From Candidatus Woesearchaeota archaeon (GTDB lineage: Archaea > Nanobdellota > Nanobdellia > Woesearchaeales > JAFGPW01), in the NCBI GenBank assembly GCA_016935985.1, contig JAFGPW010000004.1, forward strand, positions 152,752-216,751: a stretch of DNA of 64,000 nucleotides, given 5' to 3'. Below, piece after piece: positions 3,701-56,050 of the stretch. Position numbers and translations under genes: made by a program. Within the stretch, counting starts at the first letter, position 1, and every line of letters begins with the position of its first letter. The notes under the pieces are model-generated. The model saw only the letters and a program-made list of their open reading frames with translations. It was not told where the DNA came from and ran no database searches.

Positions 3701-3736
3701 GGAGCTTAGTTTGATTAACTAACTTAACTAAGCTCC
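3701..3736. repeat. 11-bp perfect inverted repeat GGAGCTTAGTT(n14)AACTAAGCTCC with internal TTAACTAA direct repeats; candidate operator
   Basis: Read directly from the sequence. It sits at the predicted TSS, between the TATA box and the RHH start codon. Confidence 0.6.
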
Positions 3737-3756
3737 CGCGACGAGGCGCGATCGGC

Positions 3757-13936: not shown

Positions 13937-13938
13937 GG

Positions 13939-14898: not shown

Positions 14899-15145
14899 CC
14901 CTTATTATACAGCGATGCGCGGATGGTTAATAAAGGTTATGCTGCTGAGCCATTTATTTTCAATATTGCAATCAATACAGGCAAAGTTTAAATACTTTCG
15001 GCTGTTTACTGCGGACCATGAGGCTCGCCAAGGACCACGTCACAGCAGTGGGTGTCGTCGTCGTAGCATGAGCCTGCTCGTTCTCTGGCGGTGCGGCACA
15101 GCGCTTCCTGACGCCTAAGGGCCCGCAAGGGAAGGGGTACAGCGT

Positions 15146-17593
15146 GTGGTGCGGACAATGGAACTTCAGAAATGGTATGACATCGCGGCCGAGGAGGCGA
15201 AGTGGCAGGCATTCTGGGAGGAGAAGAAGATATTCAGGTTCGACCCCGACGGCACGGGAGAGGTCTTTGCCGTCGACACCCCGCCGCCGACGGTCTCGGG
15301 CAAGATGCACCTCGGGCACGCGTTCTCCTATGCCCAGCAGGATTTCGTGGTCCGCTACCGGCGCATGCGCGGCATGCATGTCTACTTCCCGTTCGGCACG
15401 GACGACAACGGCCTTCCCACCCTGCGCCTGATCGAGAAGACGAAAGGGGTCAAGGCAGAAAAGATGGGGCGCGAGAGGTTCCGTAAGCTCTGCGTAGAGA
15501 CGCTCGAGAACGATCTCCGGCCCGGCTATATCAAGGACTGGAAGCGCATCGCGATGAGCTGCGACTTCGACTCCTTCTACACCACGATCAACAACCACTG
15601 CCGGCGCATCTCCCAGAAGTCCTTCATCGACCTTTACAAGGCGGGCCGCGAGTACCGGAAGGAAGCGCCGGCCATGTACTGCACCGAGTGCAGGACCGCG
15701 ATCTCCCAGGTCGAGCTCCAGGACGCTGAGCTCGACTCCTTCTTCAACGACATCGTCTTCGAGCTGGAGGACGGAAGCGACCTCATCATCGCGACGACCA
15801 GGCCCGAACTGCTCCCCGCCTGCGTCGCCATATTCGCGCATCCTGAGGACGAGCGCTACGCCAAGCTCTTCGGGAAGAGGGCGAAGGTCCCGCTCTTCGA
15901 CTTCTGGGTGCCGATCATGCCGTCCCCTCGCGCGGACCCTGAGAAGGGGACCGGCATCCTGATGTGCTGCACCTTCGGGGACCAGGATGACGTCGAGCAC
16001 TATCTCGAGCACAAGCTGCCGCTGAAGGTCGCGATCGACGGCGAGGGGAACATGACGGATCTCGCGGGAAGCTACAAGGGCATGAGCGTGAGCATCGCGC
16101 GCAGGATGATCATCGAGGACCTCAAGGGCCGGCGCAAGCTCCTCTCCCAGACGCCGATCAGGCACACGGTGAACGTGCACGAGCGCTGCGGCACCGAAGT
16201 GCAGATCCTCAACTCCAAGCAGTGGTTCATCAGGTATCTCGACCTCAAGGAGCAGATGCTCGCGTGGGGGCGGGAGCTCAACTGGTATCCCAACCACATG
16301 CGCGTCAGGTACGAGAACTGGGTGAACGGCCTCAGGTGGGACTGGTGCATCTCGCGGCAGATCTACTTCGGCATCCCCTTCCCGGTCTGGTACTGCGCCA
16401 AGTGCGAGGCCGTCATCCTGGCGCGCGAGGAGGACCTGCCGGTCGATCCGATAACTGACAGGCCGCCGGTGACAAAATGCCCGAAGTGCGGGCATGGCGA
16501 ATTCGTCCCCGAGACCGACATCATCAACACGTGGGCGACCTCCAGCCTGACGCCGCAGATAGCCGCAGACCTCTATAAGGGCCATCCCATTCACCAGAGG
16601 CTGTATCCGATGAGCATGCGGCCGCAGGCGCACGACATCATCACGTTCTGGCTGTTCAACACCGTGGTGAAGAGCAGGCTCCACAACGGCGTCAACCCAT
16701 GGAAGGACTGCGTGATCTCCGGCCATGCCCTCGACCCGAGGGGGAAGAAGATGAGCAAGAGCAAGGGCAATGTCGTCGAGCCGCAGAAGGTGATGGATGA
16801 GTACGGCGCCGACTGCCTGCGGTTCTGGGCTGCCTCGAGCAAGCTCGGTGAGGACCTGCCGTTCATGGAAAAAGACCTCGTCACCGGGCGGAAGTTCATT
16901 ACCAAGCTCTGGAACGCATCGAGGTTCGCGCTGATGCACCTCGGCGGCTATGCCGGCGCGCGGCCGAAGCGCCTCGCTCCGATCGATGCGTGGCTCCTCT
17001 CACGGCTGCACCGCCTCATCAAGGGGGCGACCGAGTCGTTCGAGAGGTATGAGTACGCGCGCACCAGGCTCGAGACCGAGAAGTTCTTCTGGCAGGTCTT
17101 CTGCGACAATTACCTCGAGTTCGTGAAAGAGCGGCTCTATAACAGCGAGGCCTTTGGCCCCGACGAAGTGCTCTCGGCGAAGTACACGCTCTACCAAGCG
17201 AACCTCGCGATCATCAAGCTGATGGCGCCGATCATGCCGCACATCACGGAAGCGGTCTTCCAGCTCTACTACGCCAAGCACGAGAACGAGAAGAGCATCC
17301 ATCTCTCCCAATGGCCCGCCTACGACGCGAAGCTGGTCGACGAGAAGGCGGAGAAGGCAGGCGACCTCGCGGTCGTGATAGTGGGGGCAGTGCGCCGCCA
17401 CAAGTCTGAGAACGCGCTCTCGCTCAAGACCGAACTCGCGATGATCACCGTCGAATGCACCAAGCAGGAGGAGGCGCTGCTGAGCGGGATCGAGAAAGAC
17501 CTCCTCGGCGTCACGAAGGCGAGGCGGATCGCGTTCGGCAAGGCGGATCAGGATATCCCTGACACCGCGCTCAGGATCTCTATCGAGCAGTAG
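15146..17593 (+). CDS. valS: Valyl-tRNA synthetase
   Basis: Class I HIGH (MHLGHAF) and KMSKS (KMSKSKGN) motifs, an editing domain, and 815 aa. Confidence 0.9.
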   Translation: MVRTMELQKWYDIAAEEAKWQAFWEEKKIFRFDPDGTGEVFAVDTPPPTVSGKMHLGHAFSYAQQDFVVRYRRMRGMHVYFPFGTDDNGLPTLRLIEKTKGVKAEKMGRERFRKLCVETLENDLRPGYIKDWKRIAMSCDFDSFYTTINNHCRRISQKSFIDLYKAGREYRKEAPAMYCTECRTAISQVELQDAELDSFFNDIVFELEDGSDLIIATTRPELLPACVAIFAHPEDERYAKLFGKRAKVPLFDFWVPIMPSPRADPEKGTGILMCCTFGDQDDVEHYLEHKLPLKVAIDGEGNMTDLAGSYKGMSVSIARRMIIEDLKGRRKLLSQTPIRHTVNVHERCGTEVQILNSKQWFIRYLDLKEQMLAWGRELNWYPNHMRVRYENWVNGLRWDWCISRQIYFGIPFPVWYCAKCEAVILAREEDLPVDPITDRPPVTKCPKCGHGEFVPETDIINTWATSSLTPQIAADLYKGHPIHQRLYPMSMRPQAHDIITFWLFNTVVKSRLHNGVNPWKDCVISGHALDPRGKKMSKSKGNVVEPQKVMDEYGADCLRFWAASSKLGEDLPFMEKDLVTGRKFITKLWNASRFALMHLGGYAGARPKRLAPIDAWLLSRLHRLIKGATESFERYEYARTRLETEKFFWQVFCDNYLEFVKERLYNSEAFGPDEVLSAKYTLYQANLAIIKLMAPIMPHITEAVFQLYYAKHENEKSIHLSQWPAYDAKLVDEKAEKAGDLAVVIVGAVRRHKSENALSLKTELAMITVECTKQEEALLSGIEKDLLGVTKARRIAFGKADQDIPDTALRISIEQ

Positions 17594-26505: not shown

Positions 26506-26618
26506 GGACCTGTAGCCCAGCCTGGATAAGGCGCCGGCCTTCTACGCGAGGATCGGAGCTCTCGGGCTCTCCTTGCAAAGAGAGCCGGAGATCGGGGGTT
26601 CGAATCCCTCCAGGTCCA
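26506..26618 (+). tRNA. tRNA-Arg (UCU) with a ~38-nt intron at the canonical 37/38 position
   Basis: Acceptor GGACCTG/CAGGTCC; anticodon stem CCGGC/GCCGG with loop C-U-UCU-A interrupted by the intron; T-loop TTCGAAT; discriminator A. A TATA box (tttataaa) lies ~30 nt upstream. Confidence 0.7.
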
Positions 26619-26673: not shown

Positions 26674-26799
26674 GCGGGGGTAGCCAAGCGGCTAAGGCGA
26701 TCGGCTGCAGAGCCGGTACCGCGATCGGTACGACGGGTCCTGCGGGACGATGACTGCGCTGATACCGATTATTCGGGGGTTCGAATCCCCCCCCTCGCT
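26674..26799 (+). tRNA. tRNA-Cys (GCA) with a ~53-nt intron at the 37/38 position
   Basis: Acceptor GCGGGGG/CCCTCGC (one G-U pair); anticodon stem ATCGG/CCGAT with loop C-U-GCA-G then the intron; T-loop TTCGAAT; discriminator U, the Cys identity element. An oligo-T tract follows. Confidence 0.65.
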
Positions 26800-30217: not shown

Positions 30218-30739
30218 ATGAGCAAAGCAGTGGCCCTGCTGGCGATCGCGCTCCTCGCGGCTCCTGCAGCGGCCGCGGTGCCGCCGATAGCGATGGAGAT
30301 TTATGGCGGGATCACGATCGACGGCGAGGACGCGATCGAAGGGATCCTCGTAGAGGCGTACGGCGAGGACGGCCGGCTCTGCGGCCGGTTCGTCGTCGAA
30401 GTGCCGGGAAAATACGGCCTGCTCTCCTGCAATGCCGACGATCCCGACACCGAGGAGGACGAGGGAGCGTCGCCGGGCGAGGCGATCGTGTTCAGGATCA
30501 ATCGGCAGGCGGCCGTCGCTGAGCGGCAGGTCCTCTTCGAGGCAGGAGAGTTCGCTGAGGTGAGGCTTGCCGCGTCGCTCCCTGACGGCCAGCAGCCGTT
30601 TATGGAGGTGCCGGCAGACGATGAGGGCGGCGCGCCATGGAAGACCATCTTCGTCGCGATCATCGTCGTCCTCGCCCTCATCGTATGGAACAAGCGGCTC
30701 GAGCTCCGGATAAAGGATCTCACCAGGAAACGCGAATGA
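30218..30739 (+). CDS. Secreted, C-terminally anchored protein carrying the shared N-terminal module (IYGGITIDGEDA..GRFVVEVPGKYGLLSCNAD..EDEGASPGE)
   Basis: Signal peptide MSKAVALLAIALLAAPAAAA; a C-terminal TM helix plus a basic tail; the stop overlaps the next start (ATGA). Confidence 0.6.
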   Translation: MSKAVALLAIALLAAPAAAAVPPIAMEIYGGITIDGEDAIEGILVEAYGEDGRLCGRFVVEVPGKYGLLSCNADDPDTEEDEGASPGEAIVFRINRQAAVAERQVLFEAGEFAEVRLAASLPDGQQPFMEVPADDEGGAPWKTIFVAIIVVLALIVWNKRLELRIKDLTRKRE

Positions 30740-33666
30740 GGAAGAGCAGCTCACAGCGGACCGTGCAGGCGATCTTGGTAGCAGTCGCCCTCATCATGGT
30801 CATGCGTCTCGCCTCGGCGGTGCCGCCGATACCTGCGTCCTTCTCAGGAACGCTCACCATCGACGGCGCGAACGCGCCTCCCGGCACGAACGTATCGGCG
30901 TTCGACCCCGACGGCGTGATGTGCGGCCAGTTCATCTCCACTGTCGTCGGCTTCTACGGCCTGCTCGACTGCGAGGGCGACGACACGGACACCGGCCCTG
31001 ATGAGGGAGCCGAGGACGGCGACACGATAACATTCTACGTCGACGGCGACCTCGCGGACGCCGTCGGGAGCACGACCTGGACCGCAGGAGGGTTCCCGGT
31101 GGCGAACCTGAACGCGCAGAACGACCCGCCGACGATTTCGTCGATATCCGGGCTCTCGGGGACCGTGCCGGCAGGCTCCCTGCAGACCGTCGACTCGGTG
31201 ACGAGCGACCCGAACCCGACCTTCGGGACTAAGGACCAGGTGCGGCTCATCATCTGCACGACGAACTCCGCGTCTGACGGCTCCGGCTGCGACGCCGCGA
31301 CCGTCTGTAGCGGCGCGCTCGCCGCCGACGACCCGAGCTGCTCATTCAACGTCGAAGGCAGCACCGGCTCCTGGACGCGCTACGTCTTCGCCATGGACGA
31401 GCACGACGAGGTCTCGCTCTCATCGCGGCAGCTCACCTATTCGACCGACGGATCGCCGCCCTCGATCACGGGCATCACGCCGACGAACAACTCCTGGCAG
31501 AACGCGACCCCGCTCCCGCTCAACGTCAACACCGACGAGAACGGCTGGTGCAAGTACGACTTCGCCGTGGGGATCGCGTTCGCGGCTAAGGCGAACCTCA
31601 TGACCGGCGGCGGGTCATCGGCCCACGATGGCAACGTCGCGCTCGCGCCGGGGAACAACGATTTCTACATCCAGTGCAACGACACTTTCGGCAACGTCAT
31701 GGCGCTCGCCGACGAGGTCCACCACCGCCTCCGGTACGATGACGCTAACCCCACCTCCGGCGGCGCGACCGTGTGGATCGACGGCGGCGACCCGAACAGC
31801 ACGATCGGGAACGTCTACGTCAACTGGACTGGCTTCACCGACGCGCAGTCGGGCATCATGGGCTACTACTACAACACCGCCAACAACCAAGGAACGATCG
31901 GCGGGACCTACACCGCGAACACCTTCGCGAGCATGGCCCTGCCTGAGGGCGCGGCGCCCGCGGTCTACGTCTGGCCGATTGACATTTCCTATCGCATCGG
32001 AAACGCCGCGTCAGACACCATCATGGTCGACCTTACCCCACCCACCCTCTCCAATTGGGCGGAATCGCCGCCTGACCTCAACTCGAGCTCACCCGAGAAC
32101 TTCACCGTGTCGGTGACCGCGGCAGATGCGGTCTCAGGCCTCAACGGCAGCCCCCAGCTGCGGTACCGCAGGGGGAGCTACGACTCCTCATACACCTCCT
32201 GGCAGACGATGTCAGGCGCCGGCCCCTCTTACAGCCATACCATCCCGCAGCCGACCGGCGGCTGGTTCACGATCATCGACGAGTATGTCTATTACCAGGT
32301 CAGGGTCTGGGACCGCGTCGGTTGGAACCAGACGACCGGCATCCTCTCCGAGCGCGTGAACCGCATGAACTACCCGCCGGTCTTCGACGCGATCGGCAAC
32401 AAGGTCGCCCAGGAGGACGAGCTCATCTGGTTCTATATCCATGCTGCCGACAACGACAACGACACGCTCGCCTTCACGAGCAACCTCTCCGTCCTTTCCA
32501 TCGCCACTGTGAATCGGACCACCGCGAACGTCAGCTGGACGCCCGGCTACGCGTACAACGGCGACAACCATATCTATTTCACCGCGGATGACGGGACCGT
32601 CGCCGTGAACTCCTCGACGGTCAACATCTGGGTGAACGCGACGAACGATGCCCCTGTGCTCGCAACGATCGCTGACCAGACCGTCTACGTGCACGAGGAG
32701 CTGAGCATCCAGGCCATGGCGACCGATGAGGACAACGAGACGATCACCTATCATCAGGATCCCGGCTCGAGGAGCGTCTTCAGAATCGATCCGGCGACAG
32801 GGTGGATCAACTTCACCGCGCTCCTCGGCTATGTCGGACGCCGGAACGTCACCATCTACGCCTCCGACGGGAAGGTCAACGACTCCGAGAACTTCACGCT
32901 CACAATCTACTACTGCGGAGATGACATCTGCAACACGAACGAGAACTGCTCGTCCTGCCCGCAGGACTGCGGCAGCTGCAGCTCCCAGCGCCCTGACCGG
33001 CTCGCCATTGTCATCCAGCCGCGCAACTGCCTGAACCAGACCATGCTCATCAAGGTGTATGACATGACGGTGCGTGCGAACTGCACGACGATGGGGCTGA
33101 TCTATGAGGGCTATGAGGTGTGCGGCAACCTGAGCGATGTCGGGCTCACCATCTCCATCAAGGACGAGGGAACCGGCACCTACAACGAGAGCGCGGAGCT
33201 CTCCACCGACGATCTCGGCGAGGCGACATTCACGCCGATGATCCCCGGCCACTATCGGATCGTCGCGAAGAAGTCGGACTATCCCGACACCCTGATGCAC
33301 TTCGAGGCCGACTACTGCTACGCCAACGAGACGCTCAACGAGACGACGGCGCCGGCGGCCGTGAACCAGACCGGCGAGCCCACGACGGAGCCCGCCACGA
33401 AGCCGCCGGAGACCGAGGGGCCGGAGGAGGTTCTCCCCAAAGAGGAGACGAGCCTCTTCCTCTTCATCCTGTACTATGTCATCATCCCGATACTCCTCCT
33501 CTCGCTCTTCACCGCGAGCGCCTGGTACTACCAGAAGGAGAAGGACAACAGCATCGCGATCCTGAAGGCTCGGATATCGGTGAAGCGCCAGTACCTCGTG
33601 CTCGCGAAGTACGCCGAGTACTACTGGCACCTGCTCCTCGAGAGGATCGGGCTCGGCAAGAAATGA
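30736..33666 (+). CDS. Large (976 aa) secreted surface protein: shared N-terminal module, a long beta-rich N-glycosylation-rich region, a Cys-rich segment (YYCGDDICNTNENCSSCPQDCGSCSS), a Thr/Pro-rich stalk, and a C-terminal TM anchor
   Basis: Signal peptide cleavage after ASA; the shared module FSGTLTIDGANAP..GQFISTVVGFYGLLDCEGD..PDEGAEDGD; C-terminal LFLFILYYVIIPILLLSLFTASAWYY. Confidence 0.65.
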   Translation: MRKSSSQRTVQAILVAVALIMVMRLASAVPPIPASFSGTLTIDGANAPPGTNVSAFDPDGVMCGQFISTVVGFYGLLDCEGDDTDTGPDEGAEDGDTITFYVDGDLADAVGSTTWTAGGFPVANLNAQNDPPTISSISGLSGTVPAGSLQTVDSVTSDPNPTFGTKDQVRLIICTTNSASDGSGCDAATVCSGALAADDPSCSFNVEGSTGSWTRYVFAMDEHDEVSLSSRQLTYSTDGSPPSITGITPTNNSWQNATPLPLNVNTDENGWCKYDFAVGIAFAAKANLMTGGGSSAHDGNVALAPGNNDFYIQCNDTFGNVMALADEVHHRLRYDDANPTSGGATVWIDGGDPNSTIGNVYVNWTGFTDAQSGIMGYYYNTANNQGTIGGTYTANTFASMALPEGAAPAVYVWPIDISYRIGNAASDTIMVDLTPPTLSNWAESPPDLNSSSPENFTVSVTAADAVSGLNGSPQLRYRRGSYDSSYTSWQTMSGAGPSYSHTIPQPTGGWFTIIDEYVYYQVRVWDRVGWNQTTGILSERVNRMNYPPVFDAIGNKVAQEDELIWFYIHAADNDNDTLAFTSNLSVLSIATVNRTTANVSWTPGYAYNGDNHIYFTADDGTVAVNSSTVNIWVNATNDAPVLATIADQTVYVHEELSIQAMATDEDNETITYHQDPGSRSVFRIDPATGWINFTALLGYVGRRNVTIYASDGKVNDSENFTLTIYYCGDDICNTNENCSSCPQDCGSCSSQRPDRLAIVIQPRNCLNQTMLIKVYDMTVRANCTTMGLIYEGYEVCGNLSDVGLTISIKDEGTGTYNESAELSTDDLGEATFTPMIPGHYRIVAKKSDYPDTLMHFEADYCYANETLNETTAPAAVNQTGEPTTEPATKPPETEGPEEVLPKEETSLFLFILYYVIIPILLLSLFTASAWYYQKEKDNSIAILKARISVKRQYLVLAKYAEYYWHLLLERIGLGKK

Positions 33667-44348: not shown

Positions 44349-45383
44349 ATGGAGAATCTTCCCGCTGATCACGAGGAGACGGTCAGGAGAGCCGGAGAAG
44401 TCTTCAGAGGACGCTTCCCACCGACGACACGCTTCGAGCGCGCGCTGTTCTACGGCTGGTACTGCAGCATCGGCGACTGCGGTTTCTGCTACATGTCCCT
44501 CCCCCACAACCGGACGCGCCCTGGCGCGAGGCGGAGCGTCCACTCGCTCGTCGCCGAGACCGTCCTGTGCAGGGAGCTCGGCTGGAATCTCGGCTTCCTC
44601 TCAGGCGGCCATGACGCCCATACCCTCATCGACTTCCGGCGATTGGTGCGGGCGGTGAGCGAGGCCTATGGGGAAAAGGTATGGATCAACGCAGGCCCGC
44701 TCATGGCAGGAGATCTCAGGCCGCTGCTGCCGTACCTCAAAGGCATCGTGGCATCGATCGAGACGGCCAATCCAGGGATTCACGAACGAGTCTGCCCTTC
44801 AAAGCCGATGGGGCCTTTCGAGGAGTCGCTCAAGGCCGCCACTGGATTCGGCCTCGCGCGCGCGATGACGATCATCCTCGGGCTCGGCGAGACGACTGAC
44901 GACTATCCGCTGCTCAAGGAATTCATCACGAAGCACGGCATCTCCAAGATCCATTTCTACGGGCTCAACCCGCATCCAGGCACGGTCTTCGAGGACGCGA
45001 AGCCGCCGTCTGCCGCCTACCACTCCTGGTGGATCGCGAAGACCAGGATCGATTTCCCGGGAATCGACATCCAGGCAGGCATCTGGGAGGACCGTGCGGG
45101 AAATGTCGCAGAGCTCCTGCGCGCCGGCGCGAACTCGATCTCGAAGTTCCCTGCGATACGCCGGTTCGGAGGCGTCGCCGCGCGTGAGATCGAGCGGCAG
45201 GCGGCAGCCGCGGGAAGACGGTTCGAAGGAACGCTCACCGCGCTTCCTGAGGTCGACTGGCAGGCCCGCGTGGATGCGCTCGCGCTCCCGGAAGAGGACA
45301 GGGCGCTCGTCAGTGCGAAACTCCGCGCGTATCTGCAGAGGATGCGATCAGGGAGTCCCCGCCCGGATACAGCTCGAGCGTGA
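44349..45383 (+). CDS. Radical SAM-like protein with non-canonical Cys spacing (CSIGDCGFC = Cx4Cx2C); function not assigned
   Basis: A Cys triad near the N-terminus followed by a GG.D-like motif and a TIM-barrel-like pattern. A TATA box (catataaata) lies ~60 nt upstream, and the upstream ORF extension is rejected. Confidence 0.45.
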   Translation: MENLPADHEETVRRAGEVFRGRFPPTTRFERALFYGWYCSIGDCGFCYMSLPHNRTRPGARRSVHSLVAETVLCRELGWNLGFLSGGHDAHTLIDFRRLVRAVSEAYGEKVWINAGPLMAGDLRPLLPYLKGIVASIETANPGIHERVCPSKPMGPFEESLKAATGFGLARAMTIILGLGETTDDYPLLKEFITKHGISKIHFYGLNPHPGTVFEDAKPPSAAYHSWWIAKTRIDFPGIDIQAGIWEDRAGNVAELLRAGANSISKFPAIRRFGGVAAREIERQAAAAGRRFEGTLTALPEVDWQARVDALALPEEDRALVSAKLRAYLQRMRSGSPRPDTARA

Positions 45384-46767
45384 TCCCGGCATTCTGATAG
45401 AACAGGTAGGCGCTGCCCTTCGGCAGGATGACATGGAAGGGATTGTCGTCGTACGCCATCGGGGTCCAGGTACCGAAGAACTGGGGGTTGAGCGCCTTGA
45501 ACGAGTCCAGGGCGATGCCCGCATGCCGCGCGAGGTCGGCGATGCGCATCCGCTTCGGCACCATGACGATCTCGAGGCTGTCCCTCACGCCCTCGTCGAC
45601 CATGAAGCCGAACCTTGCGGGATCGGTCGCGATGACGTAGCCGGCGGCCATGATAAGGGGGTAGTTCTGATTCTCGAAGGTCCTGAAATGCGGCTGGAAA
45701 TCCATGAAGTCGACCGTGCCGTAATAGCCGTTCCAAGTGAAGAAGTCCTGTATCCCTTCGACGGGCGTCCCTCTCCGTGCCTCGGTGATGAGATAGTCCC
45801 AATAGCGGTTGTCGGGATCGATGTGGTACCGTGCCTGCACCGCAGGATCGCGGAGCGCTGCGTCGAGGTCCGCGATGAGGCCGCTTTTCCCCCGGTTGTA
45901 GCCTTCGAGCGCGAGGTGCCAGTCGCCCACGAGCGCGAAGAGCTCCCGCTTGTGGCCCGCAGCCGCGACGGTCGACCTGACGAGGTCGTAGCGCCCGTCG
46001 TACCGGTCGGCGTAGCCGTTCCTCTGGTCGCCGATGGCGATGCCGCTGCTCCTGGCGGTGCTGTACTTGAACTGCCACCAGCCCTTGGCACGCGCTCCCG
46101 ATTCCGCCGTGCCGTCGAATCCTGATTCGAAGAGCGCGTTCCAGGCGAGGGCGCTCGGCAGGCCGGCGACTGAGAAGAGCTGTTCCATGAAGCCGATGTA
46201 GGGCTGGGCTGCGGCGAGCGATTCGCCGGTCCTCCCGCGCATGCCACGCTTGTAGAAGAGGTCGTCGAAAGGTATGCCGAGCTCGCGCGAAAGCGCCGTC
46301 TTCTTCGCCCGCATGATCCGCTGGTCGACGGTGGTCGTGTCCCGCCAAGGGTCGGTGATGAGGTAGGGCCTGATCCCCCGCTTCTCGTAGACCTCGAGCG
46401 TGCGGTTGTTGTAGAAGAACACGCTGTCCTCGGTCGTGGTGAGGACGTCGATCCAGAAGTCGACCTTTGGGCCGGCGAGCGGCCGGTAGGCCTGGAAGGA
46501 CCCCTTCTCGAGGGCCGACACGTTTCGTGCAGGGAAGGATATCGTGATCGGGGAGCCATGCTCTGGCGCAGGGGCGTCCGCGGCGACAGAGTCGATCGAC
46601 CGCTCGATCACCGTCGGGAGGGAGGGAGAGGGGAGGTCAGGATAAGTCTTCTTAGGGAGTATCGAAGGAAGGTTCACGAGGAGATAGAGCCCGACGACGA
46701 CGGCGAGCGAGGAGAGCCCCGCCTTCGCGATCCTCCCGCTGTCCATGGCTACCTTCGGAGGGTCCAT
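45310..46767 (-). CDS. Membrane-anchored lytic transglycosylase-like protein (family 1 SLT catalytic domain)
   Basis: An N-terminal TM helix and the SLT motifs E-S (FESGFDGTAESG), GWWQF (GLMQ-like) and EGYNRGKSG (AYNxG-like). Its 3' end overlaps the convergent radical SAM gene by ~74 nt. Confidence 0.6.
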   Translation of the reverse strand: MDPPKVAMDSGRIAKAGLSSLAVVVGLYLLVNLPSILPKKTYPDLPSPSLPTVIERSIDSVAADAPAPEHGSPITISFPARNVSALEKGSFQAYRPLAGPKVDFWIDVLTTTEDSVFFYNNRTLEVYEKRGIRPYLITDPWRDTTTVDQRIMRAKKTALSRELGIPFDDLFYKRGMRGRTGESLAAAQPYIGFMEQLFSVAGLPSALAWNALFESGFDGTAESGARAKGWWQFKYSTARSSGIAIGDQRNGYADRYDGRYDLVRSTVAAAGHKRELFALVGDWHLALEGYNRGKSGLIADLDAALRDPAVQARYHIDPDNRYWDYLITEARRGTPVEGIQDFFTWNGYYGTVDFMDFQPHFRTFENQNYPLIMAAGYVIATDPARFGFMVDEGVRDSLEIVMVPKRMRIADLARHAGIALDSFKALNPQFFGTWTPMAYDDNPFHVILPKGSAYLFYQNAGITLELYPGGDSLIASSADTRGVSH

Positions 46768-46817
46768 GCGCGACAGGGAGCGCGAGGCACTATAAAAAAG
46801 TTGCGCGCGAGGGGACC

Positions 46818-48029
46818 TCACTCATACCGCAGCGCGTCGACCGGCTGCTGCCTGGATGCCTGCATCGCGGGAAGCACGCCGGAACCCGCGCCGACGACGA
46901 AGGCGAAGAGGATGCAACCGGCGGAGAGGTACCAAGGGAAAATCGGCTGGAGCGCGGAATAGCCGACCGCGGCGGCGATCGCGCCGGCAGCCGAGGAGAC
47001 CAGGTAGCCGGAGAGGACGCCGAGGACGCCGCCGATCATGCCGAGGACGCCTGCCTCGAAGATGAAGATGAAGAGGATATCCTCGTTCCGCGCGCCAATC
47101 GCCTTCATGATGCCGATCTCCTTGGTCCGCTCGAGGACGGCGGTGTACATAGTGTTCATGATGTTGACCGAGGCCACGACAACCGAGATGAGGGCTATCA
47201 GGATCAGCATGCCGACGATCACGTCGATCACCGTCCCGAAGGTCTCGAGGAGGTCCGCGTAGGTCTGGACATAGAAGGACTCTTTCCCCACATCCTCGCC
47301 GCGGCGCTTGCGCAGCTTGTCCTCGATGGTCTTGGCGAGCCCTTCGGGATCCGTGCCCTTGTCCGCCTCGATCAGCGCGTAGCCGAACTTGTCCGCCTTG
47401 TCCGGGAACATGCTCTCGAACATATCGAAGGAGAGGTAGACGTTCCCGTCGTCCTGAGGGTTGCCCACTTCCTCGTAGAACCCGACGATGGAGAATGGCT
47501 CGCCGTTAATCTCTACCCTCTCACCGAGCCGCAGCCCGCGCTTGAAGATCTTGTCATCGAGGAGGTAGTTGTAGCCGAGCACCACATTGTTCATGTCGCC
47601 GTCCTCGAGATTCCTGCCCTTGTCTACCTTGACCGTCATCGCCCGGTCGATGAAGTCGATGCTATCCGGGTCGAGGCCCGCGATGAAGTTATAGGCCTTC
47701 TCCTTGCCGGAGACGATCTCGCCGACGCCCATGTACATCCCGGTGGCCTGCGAGACGCCGTTGATGCGCTCGACGAAGTCGAGATCGGCCCCGGTCACGT
47801 AGAAGTTCGTGTCCATCCCAGGGGCGGCCGCGCCCTTCGACATCAGGAAGAGCATGCTCGCCCCCGCCTCGTCGGCGAGGGTGTTGACATAGTTGTTGAT
47901 GCCGAGGCCGAACGAGATGAGGGCATAGATTGCCATCACGCCGATGAGGATGGAGAGGACGGTGAGGAAGCTCCGCGTCTTGCGGTGCACGAGGTTCTGC
48001 AGGGAATAGCGCATCTCGTCGGCTCTCAT
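46818..48029 (-). CDS. ABC transporter permease, FtsX/MacB-like (N-terminal TM helix, large extracytoplasmic domain, three C-terminal TM helices)
   Basis: Topology and the conserved C-terminal FtsX region (IGIMKAIGARN...). Confidence 0.75.
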   Translation of the reverse strand: MRADEMRYSLQNLVHRKTRSFLTVLSILIGVMAIYALISFGLGINNYVNTLADEAGASMLFLMSKGAAAPGMDTNFYVTGADLDFVERINGVSQATGMYMGVGEIVSGKEKAYNFIAGLDPDSIDFIDRAMTVKVDKGRNLEDGDMNNVVLGYNYLLDDKIFKRGLRLGERVEINGEPFSIVGFYEEVGNPQDDGNVYLSFDMFESMFPDKADKFGYALIEADKGTDPEGLAKTIEDKLRKRRGEDVGKESFYVQTYADLLETFGTVIDVIVGMLILIALISVVVASVNIMNTMYTAVLERTKEIGIMKAIGARNEDILFIFIFEAGVLGMIGGVLGVLSGYLVSSAAGAIAAAVGYSALQPIFPWYLSAGCILFAFVVGAGSGVLPAMQASRQQPVDALRYE

Positions 48030-49255
48030 TTGACGAACCTCAGCGCGTCGACCGGCTGCATGCGGGACGCCTGGAGCGCAGGGACGATGCCTGCGGAAAG
48101 GCCGATGACGAAGGAGAAGATGAGCGCTCCCAATATGAGCATCGGGCTCACGTTCGCCTGGATGAGGTCAAACCCGAAGGCCGCACGCCCGGCCGCCGCC
48201 CCGCCGTAGGCGAGGAGCATGCCGAGCAGGATGCCGATGAGGCCGCCGACCATGCCCATCAGGCCTGACTCGATGGCAAAGAGCGAGAAGATCACCGAGT
48301 TCTTCGCGCCGATCGCCTTCATGATGCCGATCTCCCGGGTGCGCTCGAGGACGGCGGTGTACATCGTGTTCGTGATGCCGATGCCGCCGACGACGAGGGA
48401 GATCGACGCGATGATGTAGACGAAGAGCTGGATAGCGAACAGCGTCGAGTTGAGCGACTCGATCGCGTTCTGGGGGGATTCGACCGTGAAGTCCTCCTCG
48501 CCCTTCTTCACGCTCCGCTCCTTCCTGAGGACCTTCTCGATGTCCTCCTTGACGCGGTCCATCCTTGAGACGTCCTGGACCTTCACGCCGAGGATGTTGA
48601 TGTCGTCGCGGCTCCCGTTCCTGAAGAGGTCGAGCATGACATCCTCTTCCATCACCACGATGTTGTCGAAGAGGAAGCTCCCCTTCTTCTCCATGATGCC
48701 GACGACCTCGAACGGTCTGCCGCTGATGAGCACGCGGTCACCGGCATTGATGGGCTTGCCGAACGCGTCGCTCGAAAGGAAATTGTTGCCGAGCAACACA
48801 AGGTAGGTGTCGCCTTCCTTGAGGAGGCGTCCCTGCACCACCTTCATGTTGATCATCGTCTCGACAAGCTTGCGGTTCTTCCCGCCGGGCATCGACATGG
48901 CGTATCCGATGCCCTGGACGTCGTTGAACTCGAGCGTGCCGCTCTCGACGTAGCGGGGGATGACCGCCTCGACGCCGTTCACCCCCTCGATCGGCTTGAT
49001 GAGGTCCTCGGTGAGCGGCTCGACGACGCCGATGCCCGGCGGGCCCGCGAAGTCGAGCCCCTGCGCGCGCACTGAGAGGACGTCGGTGCCGAGGAAGCCG
49101 AACTGGGCTGAGATCGCGGTGCGTAGTCCCTCGCCGAGGCCGATGAGCCCCACCACCGCGGCGATGCCGATGAAGATGCCGAGCATGGTCAGCCAGGAGC
49201 GCAGTCGCCGCCTCGTGATGTTCGCGAGCGACATGAGGAGGTAGTCCTTGAGCAT
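48026..49255 (-). CDS. ABC transporter permease, FtsX/MacB-like (paralog)
   Basis: The same architecture (IGIMKAIGAKN...) and a 4-nt overlap with the downstream permease. Confidence 0.75.
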   Translation of the reverse strand: MLKDYLLMSLANITRRRLRSWLTMLGIFIGIAAVVGLIGLGEGLRTAISAQFGFLGTDVLSVRAQGLDFAGPPGIGVVEPLTEDLIKPIEGVNGVEAVIPRYVESGTLEFNDVQGIGYAMSMPGGKNRKLVETMINMKVVQGRLLKEGDTYLVLLGNNFLSSDAFGKPINAGDRVLISGRPFEVVGIMEKKGSFLFDNIVVMEEDVMLDLFRNGSRDDINILGVKVQDVSRMDRVKEDIEKVLRKERSVKKGEEDFTVESPQNAIESLNSTLFAIQLFVYIIASISLVVGGIGITNTMYTAVLERTREIGIMKAIGAKNSVIFSLFAIESGLMGMVGGLIGILLGMLLAYGGAAAGRAAFGFDLIQANVSPMLILGALIFSFVIGLSAGIVPALQASRMQPVDALRFVK

Positions 49256-49305
49256 CTCTCAGCACCGGGGCATGATGGAGGGGAAAAGAAAGGAAAGGGG
49301 GATGG

Positions 49306-50565
49306 TCACTTCTTCATCCCGTTGTGGTTGCGCCGCTTCTTGCGCCAGCGCCGCCAGAGCACGAAGCCCACGACGAGCACCACGACGACGCCGAGGTAGA
49401 TACCGACACCGCTCTTTTGGACGAGGCCGTACTGCTCCAGCTGCTCCGCCGTGTAGAGCGGGACCTTGAGCTCCACCCGCATGGAGTATTCCTTGTTGTT
49501 CGGGTCGAGGTAGGTCACCTGGAGGGGGAGCGTCACCGCGCCGGAGGCCGCCTTCTCGATGTAGAGGTCGAAGTCAGCGGTCTCGTAGTCATCGGAGTCA
49601 ATGTTGCCGAGGTAGAGCTCGGTGGGCGAGAAGACCTTGTAGAGGTCTGACCCTTCGAGCACGACGTTGACGAACTTGACGTCCGAGAGCCCGCGGTTGA
49701 CGAACTTGACCGTGACCTCTCCCTTCGAGCCGGAAGATCGGATGTCTGTGGTGTCGAGGATGACCGAGAGGTCGGGCGTGCTCCCCACCACGAGACTCGT
49801 CACCGCGGCCATGGTGTAGTCCTCGCCGTCCATGTCGCTGTAGGTGATGGCGACGGGGATCTTGTAGACGCCGGAAGCGGCGTCAGATTCCGCGATGAGC
49901 TTGAACTCGACCGCCTGCTCCTTGCCGGGGTCGAGCCGCTTGATGACCTTCTCGTTCGTCGAGTCGACCGGCGCGAACGGCACGTCAGTGCCCGAGAGCC
50001 CGAGGGAGACCTTGATGTCCTTGAGGCCGGTCCCGACCATGTTCTTCAGCCGCATGGAGACGTCGACCGTGTCGCCGGGGGAGACATGGGAGGGGTCTGC
50101 GGTGACGTCGACAATCGAGATGACGGCGTTCGATGAGCCGACCCTGACGTCGAAGTCGTCGGTGGGGTGCCAGATGTCGTCAGCCCCCTTCTTGTACCTG
50201 AGGCTGAGCTTGGAGATCCCGTCGATCGCGTCGGCATCGACCCTGAGCCGGTAGGCCATGATGGCCTCCTGGTCCTCGTCCGCGCTCGCTCGGATCGACC
50301 CGTAGTAGCGCATCGCCGAGGCGCCGGGATCGAGGGAGAATGGATAGTTGTATATGAGCTCGAAGCTCACGTCCTCCGCCTGCTGCGTGCCGACGTTCTC
50401 GATCAGGAACCTGACGTCGACGTAGCCGCCGGGCTCCGCCGGGAAGGGGTCCTGGTTGAGCAGGGTGACCGTGAGCTTCGATGCTGTCGGGGTCGCCCCG
50501 AACGCCGGCACGATGCCTATCATCATCATGACTGTCAATGCCATCGCGAATGCTGTCTTACGCAT
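49306..50565 (-). CDS. Secreted, C-terminally anchored protein built of repeated beta-sandwich (CARDB/COG1361-like) domains
   Basis: A signal peptide MRKTAFAMALTVMMMIGIVPAFGA; three to four ~100-aa repeats with alternating hydrophobic beta patterns; a C-terminal TM helix plus RRWRKKRR. Confidence 0.6.
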   Translation of the reverse strand: MRKTAFAMALTVMMMIGIVPAFGATPTASKLTVTLLNQDPFPAEPGGYVDVRFLIENVGTQQAEDVSFELIYNYPFSLDPGASAMRYYGSIRASADEDQEAIMAYRLRVDADAIDGISKLSLRYKKGADDIWHPTDDFDVRVGSSNAVISIVDVTADPSHVSPGDTVDVSMRLKNMVGTGLKDIKVSLGLSGTDVPFAPVDSTNEKVIKRLDPGKEQAVEFKLIAESDAASGVYKIPVAITYSDMDGEDYTMAAVTSLVVGSTPDLSVILDTTDIRSSGSKGEVTVKFVNRGLSDVKFVNVVLEGSDLYKVFSPTELYLGNIDSDDYETADFDLYIEKAASGAVTLPLQVTYLDPNNKEYSMRVELKVPLYTAEQLEQYGLVQKSGVGIYLGVVVVLVVGFVLWRRWRKKRRNHNGMKK

Positions 50566-51298
50566 GTGATTCACCTCGTCTGCTGGTGGGATTCGATGAG
50601 TGTGCATGGTTGTTCTTGGTGTCCTTGACGATCGCGCCGTCCTTCAGGTAGACCACCCGGTCGGCGTATTTCGCCAGGTTCTGGTCGTGCGTGACCATGA
50701 TGATCGTCTTGTGCTTCTCGCGGTTGAGCTTCTTCATGAACTCCATCACGTTGATGCCGGTCTTGGAGTCGAGGTTGCCGGTCGGCTCGTCGGCGAGGAT
50801 GACGTCGGGGTCGTTCACGAGCGAACGGGCGATCGCGACCCGCTGCTGCTGCCCGCCGGAGAGCTCGGTCGGCTTGTGGCCTATCCGGTCGCCGAGCCCG
50901 ACGAGCTCGAGCACTTCCCGCGCCTTCACGATGCGCTCCTCGTGCGGGACGTCCTGGAATGTCATGGGAAGCATCACGTTCTCGAGCGCCGTGAGCGTCG
51001 CTATCAGGTTGAAGTTCTGGAAGATGAAGCCGATTGTCTGGCCGCGGATCTGGGCGAGGTCGGACTCGTCCATCTCGGAGATGTCATCGCCGTTGAGGAA
51101 GATATGCCCTTCGGTCGGGATGTCGAGGCAGCCCACCATGTTCATCATGGTCGACTTGCCGCTGCCCGACGGGCCTTCGATCACGAGGAACTCGCCGGGA
51201 TAGATATCAAGGTTAGCATTGCAGACTGCCATCACATTGACCTCTCCCATCTGGTAGGTTTTGCATACGTCCTTGAGCCTGATGATCGGGTGCGCCAT
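50558..51298 (-). CDS. ABC transporter ATP-binding protein (MacB/LolD-like)
   Basis: Walker A GPSGSGKST, the signature LSGGQQQRVAIARSL, Walker B ILADEPTGNLD and an H-loop. Confidence 0.85.
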   Translation of the reverse strand: MAHPIIRLKDVCKTYQMGEVNVMAVCNANLDIYPGEFLVIEGPSGSGKSTMMNMVGCLDIPTEGHIFLNGDDISEMDESDLAQIRGQTIGFIFQNFNLIATLTALENVMLPMTFQDVPHEERIVKAREVLELVGLGDRIGHKPTELSGGQQQRVAIARSLVNDPDVILADEPTGNLDSKTGINVMEFMKKLNREKHKTIIMVTHDQNLAKYADRVVYLKDGAIVKDTKNNHAHSSNPTSRRGESHA

Positions 51299-51303
51299 GA
51301 TTC

Positions 51304-51786
51304 TCACATCCTCTCGATTTTCGCTTGCATCTCCTTCATGATGGCATCGAACCTCATCAGCTGCGTGTAGTAGTCGGTGATGATCTGGAGCTTCTTGCGC
51401 TCGATATCGGTGAGCTTCGCCTTTCTCGCGCTCTCGATGATGGGGGGGATGGTCCGCTTCGCCGGCTCGATGAAATGGGCAGTGAAGGCGTCCATCTTGC
51501 TGCGCAGGAGGGTAGGCAAATCGCTCTCTATATGATAGTAGACCTTCTTCGATCCCGGCCTCTTGGTCCGCTGGACCTGGCCGATGCTCTCGAAGAGCTT
51601 GAGCTTGCTCGAGACCGAGGCGAGAGAGTAGCCGGTCCGCTCCGCGAGCTCGTGTATCGATATCTCCCCCGGTTCCAGGAACAGTACGCCGACGAGCTTC
51701 GCGCCGAGCATATCCATGCCGAAACTCCTGAAAACCTGGATGATGAAATCCTGGAACTCCTTCTCGAATGCCGCCATTTTCACCAT
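51304..51786 (-). CDS. Winged-helix transcriptional regulator (MarR/TrmB-like) heading the ABC operon
   Basis: An HTH region (ISIHELAERTGYSLASVSSKLKLFESIGQV) followed by a wing (RTKRPGSKKVYY). Confidence 0.55.
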   Translation of the reverse strand: MVKMAAFEKEFQDFIIQVFRSFGMDMLGAKLVGVLFLEPGEISIHELAERTGYSLASVSSKLKLFESIGQVQRTKRPGSKKVYYHIESDLPTLLRSKMDAFTAHFIEPAKRTIPPIIESARKAKLTDIERKKLQIITDYYTQLMRFDAIMKEMQAKIERM

Positions 51787-51930
51787 TTATCGAATTTTCA
51801 GTATAATCTGGATATGATGATTATTGAGGTATATAAAGGTTATGAAAGGACATACAGTTTTCAGTATTGAAAACAATCCATGCCGCAGCCACCGTAAAGA
51901 ATAAATAGTGCAGAGCCGTTCGCGGGCAGA

Positions 51931-52536
51931 ATGCGGCGCAAAAGGAAGGACACGCTCCTGTCCGGCAAGAACCTCATGGCAGGATTCATCGTCAGCATCA
52001 TGGTGCTCTCGGTGCTCGGCTTCATGTGGGGCAGGGAGGCTGACACCCAAGGGAGCCTCACTTATGATGGCATCGTGTTCGACAGGGTCCAGGAAGGCTG
52101 GCAGACGGAGGTCGGCGGCAGCAGCCACCTTTTCCAGTATTTCCCCGGCGAGGTGGATGCAATCGACTTCTCGTCCGCTGACGCCGTGATGGTCCGTGAC
52201 GCGAGGATGATGGTCTTCCTCTTCGACCCTGATGACCCCGACCTCGTGACTCTCGACACCCTGCGGCTCGACCTTTCGGACGCCTTCGCGACCGGCTTTG
52301 ACAGCTATCTCTCGAGCGCGACGACCGCGGCATCCGACCTATACGCGCTTCCGGTCCTCGGCTGCGCGAACGCCTCGCAGTATATCCCCTTCATCTATTT
52401 CACGCGCGGCAACGAGACGGGGATCGCGCCATCGGCCGAGAGCCCGTACTGCCTGGTGCTCTCTGGCAGCTCAGGGATGCACTATGTCCAGCTCAAGGAC
52501 CGGCTCCTCTACGGCATGCTCGGGGTGATCGGATGA
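51931..52536 (+). CDS. Hypothetical N-terminally anchored extracytoplasmic protein
   Basis: An ORF with a single N-terminal TM helix; no motif recognised. Confidence 0.4.
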   Translation: MRRKRKDTLLSGKNLMAGFIVSIMVLSVLGFMWGREADTQGSLTYDGIVFDRVQEGWQTEVGGSSHLFQYFPGEVDAIDFSSADAVMVRDARMMVFLFDPDDPDLVTLDTLRLDLSDAFATGFDSYLSSATTAASDLYALPVLGCANASQYIPFIYFTRGNETGIAPSAESPYCLVLSGSSGMHYVQLKDRLLYGMLGVIG

Positions 52537-53258
52537 AAGCCGGGAAGAAGGGCGAGGTGAAGGAAGGGCGTCCTGAAGAGAAGGATGAGAAGGCCACCGG
52601 GAAAGGCGATACCAATCTCTACCTGCTCGGAGGGACGATCGTCGTCGTGATCCTCGCCATCGCGGGCGTCGCCTGGTACGCGATGACCCATCAGGAGCCC
52701 CAGACCATCAACGACCGTTTCCAGGAGCTTGAGGAGGAGGGCCCGGCAGCGGTCGACGATGACAACCTCATCTACAACAACTTCGTGTTCATCAGGTACG
52801 ACGGCCTCTGGTACACGAAGGTGCGGACCCAGAGCGCGGAGTATGAGATCCCGCTCCACTTCAGCCCGCCCGAGGTGATGGATGTCCCGGTGACCGGCGA
52901 CATCATGCGATTCTTCCGCGACAGCCACCAGCTGTGGGGCGGGCGCGCCTTCATCACCTTCGATCCTGCCGCGACCGACCTCTCCTATGTCGCGCTCGCG
53001 AACGGCGAGCTCTCGATGAGCCTTATCAAGGCGATCGAGATACGGCTGTTTGCCGCGTGCACCGAGAACATCACCGGCATCTGCCAGACGGTCCCGACCG
53101 TCACCTGCGGGACCAATCGGACGGTCATCTACCTCAAGCAGGACCCGGAGACAGCGGTCATCGTCGACGGCAGCTGCCTGATTCTGCAGGGCGCAGGACC
53201 GGGGCTCGTCAAGGCGGTCGACCGGGTCCTCTACACGATCTACGGCATCATGCCCTAG
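52533..53258 (+). CDS. Hypothetical N-terminally anchored extracytoplasmic protein (four Cys in the C-terminal half)
   Basis: A charged N-terminus then a TM helix, with the start overlapping the upstream stop (ATGA). Confidence 0.4.
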   Translation: MKAGKKGEVKEGRPEEKDEKATGKGDTNLYLLGGTIVVVILAIAGVAWYAMTHQEPQTINDRFQELEEEGPAAVDDDNLIYNNFVFIRYDGLWYTKVRTQSAEYEIPLHFSPPEVMDVPVTGDIMRFFRDSHQLWGGRAFITFDPAATDLSYVALANGELSMSLIKAIEIRLFAACTENITGICQTVPTVTCGTNRTVIYLKQDPETAVIVDGSCLILQGAGPGLVKAVDRVLYTIYGIMP

Positions 53259-54925: not shown

Positions 54926-56050
54926 TCAGCGGACCCCGAGCCTGCGGCACTCCGTCTTGACGTCGTCCTCGTAGTCCTCGGCGTCCTCGAGGTCATCCTC
55001 GAGATCCTCGAGGTCATCCTCGAGATCCTCGAGATCCTCTTCCTCATTGTCGAGGTCATCCTCGGCGCTCTCGAGCTCATCCTCGGCGTCCTCGAGGTCA
55101 TCCTCGAGGTCGCGGATCTCGTCGGCGTCAGTCGCGTTCGCGAGCAGCGCCTCGATCCCCGAGACCTCGTATTCCCAGTAGTTCACGTCGTCCTGGGCAG
55201 CATCGATGTCTTCCTCCTGGTCCTCAATGTCGTCCTCGGTGGTGTCGATGTCGTCCTCGAGGTCCTCGACAAGCTGACCGGCGTCGCGGATTGCCTGCGG
55301 GCAGGCCGCTGCGGTGAGCTCGGAGACGGTGAGGTAGGCCGCCGTCCCGCTGGCGCCGGGCGAGGTGTAGCCGCGCTCGAGCACCTTGCAGACCGCCTCG
55401 ATGTCGTCGATCAGGTCCTCCTGGTCCCCGATGTCGTCCTGGATGTCATCGAGGTTGTCCTCCTCGTCCTCCAGATCGTCCTCCAGATCGTCGAGCTCGT
55501 CCTCCCACTCCTCGAGGTCGTCGCGGAGCCGCTCCCGCTCGTCGGGGTCGGTCTCGTTCGCGAGCAGCGACTGCAGGCGGCCAATCTCATCCTCGGCGTC
55601 CTGGATGTCGCGCTCGATGTCCTTGATGTCGTCCTTGGAAGTGTCCTCGTCGTCCTCGAGGTCCTCGAGGTCGTTCTCGGCGTTCCTCAGCTCCTGGTCG
55701 CAGTTGACGGCGGTGAGCGTGAGCTCCTCGCCGCGGTAGGTGATGATGGTCTGGGAAGGGATGTCCGATTCCTCCTCAGGCTCTTCTTCTTCCTCAGGCT
55801 CCTGGAAGGGGACTGGCTCCTGCTCTTCAGGCTCCTCCTCAGGCTGCGCAGCGAAGACCTCATACTTCACCACGGTCGGCTGCTGCGTGTACTGGAGCTG
55901 CGAACCGGTCGGCATGGTCGTTACGTACGAGCCGGTGACCGAGGCTGTCCCGCCCTCGAACTCGAGCAGCTGCTGGACCGTGAAGTAGCCGAGGCCCAGC
56001 ACGATGATTATCAAAATGACCAACAGAATCGTCAAGAGTGCTTTCTTCAT
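54926..56050 (-). CDS. N-terminally membrane-anchored, extremely acidic repeat protein (LEDLEDD/DDLEDxEDEL repeats; internally duplicated ~115-aa module containing a Cys and a LLAN(E/A)TD(P/A)DE motif)
   Basis: A TM helix MKKALLTILLVILIIIVLGLGYF followed by >45% D+E. DNA-level tandem repeats gaggtcatcctcgagatcctc are visible. Confidence 0.5.
   Translation of the reverse strand: MKKALLTILLVILIIIVLGLGYFTVQQLLEFEGGTASVTGSYVTTMPTGSQLQYTQQPTVVKYEVFAAQPEEEPEEQEPVPFQEPEEEEEPEEESDIPSQTIITYRGEELTLTAVNCDQELRNAENDLEDLEDDEDTSKDDIKDIERDIQDAEDEIGRLQSLLANETDPDERERLRDDLEEWEDELDDLEDDLEDEEDNLDDIQDDIGDQEDLIDDIEAVCKVLERGYTSPGASGTAAYLTVSELTAAACPQAIRDAGQLVEDLEDDIDTTEDDIEDQEEDIDAAQDDVNYWEYEVSGIEALLANATDADEIRDLEDDLEDAEDELESAEDDLDNEEEDLEDLEDDLEDLEDDLEDAEDYEDDVKTECRRLGVR

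Follow-up and report, generated by a model that had tools for sequence, protein, structure and literature searches.

A Woesearchaeota operon combining MacB-class ABC genes with a C-terminally anchored COG1361 protein

Genes and proteins of the operon

A 64,000-nucleotide stretch of contig JAFGPW010000004.1 from a Candidatus Woesearchaeota archaeon, referred to here as the window, contains five co-directional, tightly packed open reading frames (ORFs) on the minus strand at 46818-51786. A preliminary description, made from the letters alone, had read them as an operon for a winged helix-turn-helix (wHTH) regulator, an ATP-binding cassette (ABC) ATPase, a CARDB/COG1361-like protein and two FtsX permeases. 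Checking the coordinates in the window located every ORF where it had been placed, and Pfam, NCBIfam and profile matches bear out all of the gene assignments. In order of transcription, the genes encode a 160-residue regulator, REG (51304-51786), predicted to be a winged-helix protein of the GbsR/MJ0223 type within the MarR superfamily; an ATPase of the MJ0796/MacB/LolD clade (50558-51307, a 249-residue ORF with a probable ATG start at 51298); a 419-residue type I membrane protein, MID (49306-50565), which is of the COG1361/CARDB type by Pfam, NCBI name and structural model; and two paralogous permeases, FXA (48026-49255, 409 residues) and FXB (46818-48029, 403 residues), each with four transmembrane (TM) segments and MacB_PCD and FtsX domains. 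The REG stop codon abuts or overlaps the ATPase start. The start of MID (MRKTAF) overlaps the ATPase stop by 8 nt (ATGCGTAA) with AGGTGA just ahead of it, and because of both features we take 50565 as the real start. A pyrimidine-rich spacer of 50 nt separates MID from FXA, and the FXA and FXB genes overlap by 4 nt.

The ATPase matches ABC_tran in Pfam (1.1e-32), and the Walker A, Q-loop, signature, Walker B and H-loop motifs are all present in the alignment. Its top NCBIfam models are MacB (9e-73) and LolD (6.5e-72), with DarD, DevA and FtsE also among them; no NCBIfam equivalog cut-off is exceeded. The closest solved relative is MJ0796 from Methanocaldococcus jannaschii (1F3O, E 1.4e-76), then Spr0694, MacB and LolD, and identity to the Methanocaldococcus orthologue is 56%. 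By its NCBIfam and PDB matches, the protein is a nucleotide-binding subunit of the MacB/LolD/FtsE clade.

Both permeases match MacB_PCD (PF12704; FXA 9e-27, 95.1 bits; FXB 4e-22, 80.1 bits; cut-off 27) over model positions 1-206 of 207, and both match FtsX (FXA 2.4e-18, FXB 7e-21). Hydropathy places the TM segments at residues 22-40, 272-290, 322-340 and 362-380 in FXA and at 24-42, 267-285, 318-336 and 363-381 in FXB, with a loop of ~230 residues between TM1 and TM2 in each. By phmmer, the best PDB match of FXA is Escherichia coli MacB (5NIK, 2.5e-38, residues 6-405), and Spr0695 is matched as well (5XU1, 1.4e-29). Both proteins have the hallmarks of type VII ABC permeases, namely four TM segments with a large ectodomain and the Porter and Sabre core of MacB. 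The family matches of the ATPase and of both permeases thus agree with the preliminary description, which had assigned the system to the MacB/LolCDE/FtsEX (type VII) class and not to the importers.

MID starts with a signal peptide at residues 5-23 that looks cleavable and ends in a C-terminal TM helix (385-403) followed by the basic tail RRWRKKRR. Its AlphaFold model (predicted local distance difference test score, pLDDT, 84.9; predicted template modeling score, pTM, 0.44) has three beta-sandwich domains, at ~30-142, 148-260 and 265-370, and then the terminal TM helix. Profile comparison shows domains 2 and 3 to be homologues (hhalign 94.5%), with domain 1 only weakly related to them. Domain 2 alone matches Pfam, with CARDB at 36.6 bits (cut-off 22.7) and NPCBM_assoc at 29.9 (cut-off 24.4). 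Conservation peaks in domain 3, the one nearest the membrane, and this domain contains the invariant motif Y-x-G-N-I-D-S-D-D-Y-E-T. Having a CARDB-type beta-sandwich in an anchored protein, MID belongs with the COG1361/CARDB surface proteins. The family is large: its profile, searched against 1.84 billion representatives, matched 6,061 clusters (50% identity) at E <= 1e-3 and 3,834 at E <= 1e-10.

An NCBI entry to which MID is 100% identical bears the name 'COG1361 S-layer family protein [Candidatus Woesearchaeota archaeon]', many homologues are named likewise, and a putative S-layer protein model matches MID weakly (31.8 bits, cut-off 110). The name and the match would suit a reading in which MID is a coincidental S-layer or adhesion neighbor, or in which it serves as the binding protein of an ordinary importer. 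We find this reading very improbable. The preliminary description had noted that a classical substrate-binding protein (SBP) in this position would make the system an importer. No SBP family or fold was found for MID in Pfam, NCBIfam, PDB sequence profile or Foldseek searches and the model is all-beta, so this candidate was rejected. No PDB sequence, SBPs included, matched below E 0.1, and the Foldseek matches were generic Ig-like stalks only (integrin legs, macroglobulin MG domains, RbmA). Permeases of the FtsX/MacB type are not known as SBP-using importers. A coincidental neighbor is unlikely because, as described below, the genes stay linked in four archaeal orders even though they are arranged differently; moreover, the euryarchaea with this partner have other known S-layer proteins.

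Conservation of the cluster and of its regulation

A relative of MID is encoded in 226 species genomes, one genome having been scanned per species. Gene order was followed in the 80 best loci (35-44% identity) and neighborhood conservation over +/-8 kb around the operon. In the synteny check suggested by the preliminary description, the order ATPase, COG1361 protein, FXA, FXB recurred on one strand in essentially all 80 loci, the exceptions being L045 and contigs that end inside the cluster. Median gaps along this series are 1.5, 14.5 and -4 nt in the 58 complete sets. Most of the 80 loci are labelled Woesearchaeota or Nanoarchaeota. About 29, from one series of metagenome-assembled genomes (MAGs), bear the unverified label 'Methanosarcinales' and are indistinguishable from the rest. 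Other related MAG contigs are labelled 'Aminicenantes bacterium' or 'Thermoproteota archaeon' despite their Woesearchaeota-type architecture and neighbors, and these labels, like 'Methanosarcinales', look unreliable. One locus (L018) has a second, paralogous cluster 1.4 kb downstream of the main one, at 13116-16462, with an ATPase, a 479-residue COG1361-like protein that differs in its third domain, and a single FtsX permease.

The two permeases form distinct lineages. FXB is ~33-38% identical to FXA-type permeases in related loci. In the 58 complete loci the first permease is always of FXA type and the second is of FXB type in 55. The pairwise distances of FXA and FXB correlate at r = 0.93 over the same loci, and such tight covariation of two distinct lineages fits an obligate heterodimer like that of LolC and LolE. 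It also raises the possibility of Lol-like trafficking, in which the permease heterodimer would pull surface proteins with a lipid or TM anchor out of the membrane and pass them to the COG1361 protein for display; the LolD-like ATPase and the presence in the window of a gene for a large Ig/cadherin-like protein (30637-33666) would agree with it. However, the scores lie far under the equivalog cut-offs (lolCE 59.9 vs 362, LolD 241.6 vs 307.75), no surface-protein gene is conserved within the 8 kb on either side, no LolA/LolB-like gene was seen, and the euryarchaeal relatives have a single permease. We consider such trafficking quite improbable.

As a single sequence, REG falls below the Pfam cut-off (MarR 21.4 vs 24.6 bits), with sub-threshold matches to MarR, HTH_24 and ArsR at residues 37-85. 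When 18 orthologues are combined in a profile, it matches MJ223 (PDB 1KU9) along the full length (E 1.6e-10, residues 3-142 vs 2-138), and 11-12 of the 18 match MarR or MarR_2 (12 in the case of MarR_2). These matches point to a GbsR/MJ0223-type member of the MarR superfamily.

The region upstream of REG is an AT-rich divergent promoter region of 144 bp (51787-51930), shared with a paralogous gene pair on the plus strand, DIV1 (51931-52536, 201 residues) and DIV2 (52533-53258, 241 residues). It contains a TATA-like box at 51830-51837 (TTTATATA on the minus strand), an operator-like site at 51795-51813, downstream of the box where the transcription start is expected, and a perfect palindrome, GTTTTCA-gtat-TGAAAAC, at 51857-51874 that is unique in the window. 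The sequence TTTTCAGTAT occurs twice in the 64 kb against 0.03 expected. Both copies lie inside this promoter region, one in the operator-like site and the other as part of the palindrome.

A wHTH gene directly precedes the ATPase gene in 43 of the 69 loci with upstream room, 18 of REG type and 25 of PadR type; the PadR-type regulator scores 50.6 bits vs a cut-off of 27. The strict pattern TTTTCA-N(4-10)-TGAAAA is found in eight of the 18 REG-type loci vs 0.7 expected, most of the others have a near-match, and the palindrome sits between the TATA box and the regulator start. It was absent from all 20 PadR-type loci searched. Instead, PadR-type loci carry a repeated palindrome of their own, ATATATCG-N5-CGATATAT, beside the TATA box and ahead of the regulator start (L001 at 4800-4920, and also L003, L006, L021 and L023). 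Conservation of the palindrome supports the predicted DNA binding by REG, and regulator and operator appear to be exchanged together as a module. Because a dedicated repressor appears to be swapped in this way, an inducible operon that responds to stress or toxins would fit better than a housekeeping one. As to composition, the window is an unusually GC-rich member of its group (~62% G+C). Promoter regions of related Woesearchaeota are 19-37% G+C, and the window's own promoter island is conspicuously AT-rich.

A COG1361 protein in the slot of the membrane-fusion protein

The same partners lie together outside the Woesearchaeota. Methanocaldococcus sp. FS406-22, whose ATPase is 92% identical to MJ0796, has in order a Yip1 gene, a CARDB protein (507 residues), a 170-residue gene, the ATPase, a 134-residue gene and a MacB_PCD/FtsX permease. 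Methanococcus aeolicus has the same arrangement except that a 294-residue gene replaces the 134-residue one and the 170-residue gene is absent. Methanohalophilus has Yip1, CARDB (418 residues), ATPase and permease, while Archaeoglobus fulgidus and A. sulfaticallidus have a 450-459-residue protein, ATPase and permease. The euryarchaeal partner proteins are homologous to MID (hhalign 93.5% and 90.6%; hidden Markov model (HMM) E 4e-8 to 8e-23) and share with it the signal peptide, the domain-3 motif (GNIDPSDFQS, GTLNPDDYGS) and the C-terminal TM helix. Most partners end in an aromatic-basic (I/V)-Y-R/K tail such as VIYRQIRK, VIYRSWKR or LIYRGFARKR, and since this end of the helix is conserved across phyla, it may be more than a passive anchor. 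By these homologies, the partnership of COG1361 protein, ATPase and permease predates the Woesearchaeota. We found no description of it in the literature, in a search limited to open-access text; one review remarks that MJ0796 may represent the nucleotide-binding domains of the MacB family.

Two side observations concern the Methanococcales. In two loci (L081 at 29-3941, L087 at 1-2462), two SpoIIM-domain genes and small unknown ORFs precede the Yip1/COG1361/ATPase/permease cluster. The small multi-TM proteins interleaved with the ABC genes (170, 134 and 294 residues) have no Pfam match.

In related bacterial pumps, the position of the MID gene is taken by the gene of a different protein. A Tepidanaerobacteraceae bacterium encodes an ATPase that is 51% identical to the window's and 61% to MJ0796, followed by a membrane-fusion protein (MFP) of YknX/HlyD type and then a MacB-type permease; the MID gene fills the slot that the MFP gene holds there. 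The euryarchaeal order Yip1, COG1361, ATPase, permease likewise mirrors yknW, yknX, yknY, yknZ of Bacillus. YknW is a Yip1-family protein, YknX is an MFP that binds the YknZ ectodomain, and both are needed for protection from the SDP peptide toxin (PMC4887032). No MFP domain was found in the operon genes or in the conserved flanks. MID is thus best seen as a subunit in the MFP slot and not as cargo. Going by position and co-inheritance, the most economical reading would make the COG1361 protein the archaeal, non-homologous counterpart of the MFP in monoderm MacB-type pumps.

We therefore favor, with a little better than even confidence, a reading of the locus as an autoregulated three-component type VII (MacB-class) ABC machine in which the COG1361 protein would be the third, non-MFP subunit. 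A dimer of the MJ0796-type ATPase would power a heterodimer of the two four-helix permeases. By mechanotransmission, the Porter/Sabre ectodomains would open and close upon ATP binding, and substrate would be expelled from the outer face of the membrane and not carried through it. The COG1361 protein would be a fixed subunit, anchored next to the permeases by its C-terminal helix, with three beta-sandwiches pointing outward and with the role that the membrane-fusion adaptors YknX, MacA and Spr0693 have in the closest bacterial relatives. That role could be to activate the pump, to guide the expelled substrate across the space beneath the S-layer, or both. The GbsR/MarR-type repressor would bind the TTTTCA-N-TGAAAA palindrome over its own promoter and presumably free the operon when a toxic or envelope-derived compound appears. 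The machine may act on an envelope component, as the preliminary description proposed. The likeliest guess for the substrate is an amphipathic peptide or a lipid-like toxin, by analogy with YknWXYZ and MacB.

Because type VII ABC systems such as FtsEX regulate extracytoplasmic partners without transport, we also considered whether the COG1361 protein could be a client whose conformation is switched by movement of the permease ectodomains, so as to steer a surface process such as host-cell adhesion, S-layer remodelling or division. The conserved, membrane-anchored position of the partner beside the permeases is consistent with this, CARDB-type domains are typical of adhesion and surface proteins, and DPANN archaea rely on cell-cell contact. 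However, the triad is also found in free-living methanogens and in Archaeoglobus, the partner lacks an enzymatic or coiled-coil effector domain, and local MarR/PadR repressors typify inducible detoxification operons and not housekeeping morphogenesis. We regard control of such a client as unlikely.

Several observations weigh against the three-component machine that we favor. MFPs have their anchor at the N-terminus, the COG1361 protein at the C-terminus, and we know of no beta-sandwich strings that form sealed conduits as MFP hexamers do. MID is the fastest-evolving protein of the set in the 58 complete loci, and its distances correlate with those of the permeases at r ~0.4, falling to a partial r of ~0.2 when the ATPase is controlled for; covariation this modest neither supports nor excludes contact between MID and the permeases. 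About one third of the loci have no detectable adjacent regulator. Finally, Yip1 adjoins the triad in Methanocaldococcus, M. aeolicus and Methanohalophilus, and a Yip1 HMM found none in the window ORFs from 38000 to 60000 or in the 80 Woesearchaeota loci.

Type VII ABC machines (MacB, LolCDE, FtsEX, BceAB) have a central place in the envelope biology and the resistance of bacteria. To our knowledge, their archaeal counterparts are essentially undescribed, and MJ0796, a model ATPase for the ABC field, has never had its physiological role established. The pairing described here suggests that archaea combine a MacB-type engine with a different partner, a C-terminally anchored beta-sandwich string, in DPANN and in three euryarchaeal orders, and the operon of MJ0796 falls within it. 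More tentatively, at somewhat less than even confidence, COG1361 proteins may be what archaea have, without homology, in place of the bacterial membrane-fusion adaptors, and together with the MJ0796-type ATPase and the MacB-type permease they may make up a pan-archaeal envelope extrusion machine, joined by Yip1 in euryarchaea and by a second permease and perhaps DIV1/DIV2 in Woesearchaeota. If so, the triad would place the much-studied MJ0796 ATPase in a cellular context and would specify how molecules cross the gap from membrane to S-layer in archaea. Retention of the system in small DPANN genomes suggests an important envelope function. Genetically tractable methanogens carry it as well, so the hypothesis is directly testable.

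Neighboring genes and comparison with known systems

Downstream of FXB lies an ORF at 45310-46821 on the minus strand, nominally overlapping FXB by 4 nt, which encodes a protein with an N-terminal TM anchor and an SLT lytic-transglycosylase domain (Pfam SLT 1.4e-7; MltD model 1.2e-13). Coupling of FtsEX to hydrolases is well established in bacteria, and with the overlap and the anchored SLT domain one could suppose that the ABC system controls this transglycosylase in a six-gene unit aimed at the cell wall of a bacterial host. We give this the least credence of the explanations considered. An SLT homologue is present in two of 81 loci, and in the other one (L049) it is ~1 kb away, so synteny disfavors the link. 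In addition, a T6 run followed by TTTATA (46791-46799, minus strand) begins 18 nt past the FXB stop; it probably terminates the operon transcript and supplies the SLT gene with its TATA box. The probable start of that gene, an ATG at 46767, lies 23 nt beyond TTTATA. By the established geometry of archaeal promoters, a leaderless mRNA would be expected to show this distance. Given the low conservation and the promoter-like sequence with its better-placed ATG, the SLT gene is best treated as a separate unit, and the six-gene unit was dropped.

DIV1 and DIV2, which have no Pfam match, are each anchored at the N-terminus and carry conserved cysteines on the extracytoplasmic side. Of the 57-58 loci whose flanks are long enough, 47 (81-82%) contain both genes; for unrelated neighbors, namely a methyltransferase gene, a radical-SAM gene and a small ORF, the figure is 50-57%. 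These frequencies are suggestive of an association with the ABC system. A model of DIV2 (pLDDT 78, pTM 0.67) gave no Foldseek match in PDB below E 0.03, and no PDB profile match was found. According to NCBI names, some DIV homologues bear an N-terminal SHOCT domain.

Further away, the gene at 30637-33666 on the plus strand encodes a protein of 1009 residues that carries Big_9 and cadherin-like Ig domains and may be a large surface or adhesion protein. The preliminary description had suggested that surface proteins encoded elsewhere in the window could be the substrate. This part found no support: nothing links those genes to the operon, and they lie far from it, outside the +/-8 kb analyzed; cargo such as the Big_9/cadherin-like protein was dropped for lack of conserved linkage. 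Genes for a pilus-type ATPase and SecDF elsewhere in the window also show no link to the operon and lie outside the same limits. A 374-residue protein encoded at 54926-56050 (minus strand) begins with a TM helix; the rest of it is repetitive, coiled-coil-like and extremely acidic, with LEDLEDDLED repeats, and its only Pfam matches are spurious coiled-coil ones. Two tRNA genes on the plus strand, at 26506-26618 (113 nt) and 26674-26799 (126 nt), are detected by Rfam and not by ARAGORN; presumably they contain introns, which marks the window as archaeal.

Among known systems, LolCDE resembles the operon in its LolD-like ATPase, in its two FtsX-family paralogues evolving in step and in the type VII fold. 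It differs in family scores (lolCE TIGR02212 59.9 and 61.8 vs 362.45 bits; LolD TIGR02211 241.6 vs 307.75), in that no LolA or LolB was found, and in that the extra subunit of the window is a bitopic beta-sandwich protein. Because archaeal relatives have a single permease, the predicted heterodimery would be a feature of this lineage. FtsEX likewise combines an FtsX-domain permease with an FtsE-like ATPase and is a precedent for regulating an extracytoplasmic partner without solute transport. However, FtsE scores 207.8 vs 264.85 bits and the FtsX models 34-47 vs 225-255, the ectodomain in the window is a full MacB_PCD, the partner is no coiled-coil hydrolase activator, and the SLT adjacency is not conserved. 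A further analogy, with no homology implied, is LptB2FGC, an ABC machine in which the bitopic, beta-rich LptC places a single TM helix against the permeases and its ectodomain begins the extracytoplasmic path; this is a type VI system, and LptC differs from MID in fold and in anchoring end.

Closer to the operon is the locus type of MJ0796 (PDB 1F3O, 1L2T, 3TIF), whose FS406-22 orthologue is encoded between a COG1361 homologue and a MacB_PCD/FtsX permease. It differs by extra small membrane proteins and one permease, and no adjacent wHTH regulator was seen there. MacAB-TolC of E. coli and Spr0693-0694-0695 of Streptococcus pneumoniae include the best structural and sequence relatives of the permeases and are among the best of the ATPase. 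Unlike these systems, the window has an ATPase that is not fused to a permease, permeases that are probably paired as a heterodimer, no MFP and no outer-membrane factor, and it is archaeal. YknWXYZ of Bacillus subtilis and B. amyloliquefaciens, a four-component MacB-type pump protecting against the SDP peptide toxin, shares with the operon a separate MacB/LolD-type ATPase, a four-TM permease with a MacB-like ectodomain, a membrane-anchored extracytoplasmic accessory encoded in the operon, which in YknWXYZ is obligatory, and a monoderm envelope without an outer-membrane channel. The window differs in having two permease paralogues and no Yip1 gene, and where the accessory of YknWXYZ is an N-terminally anchored MFP of the HlyD family, that of the window is a C-terminally anchored COG1361 beta-sandwich protein.

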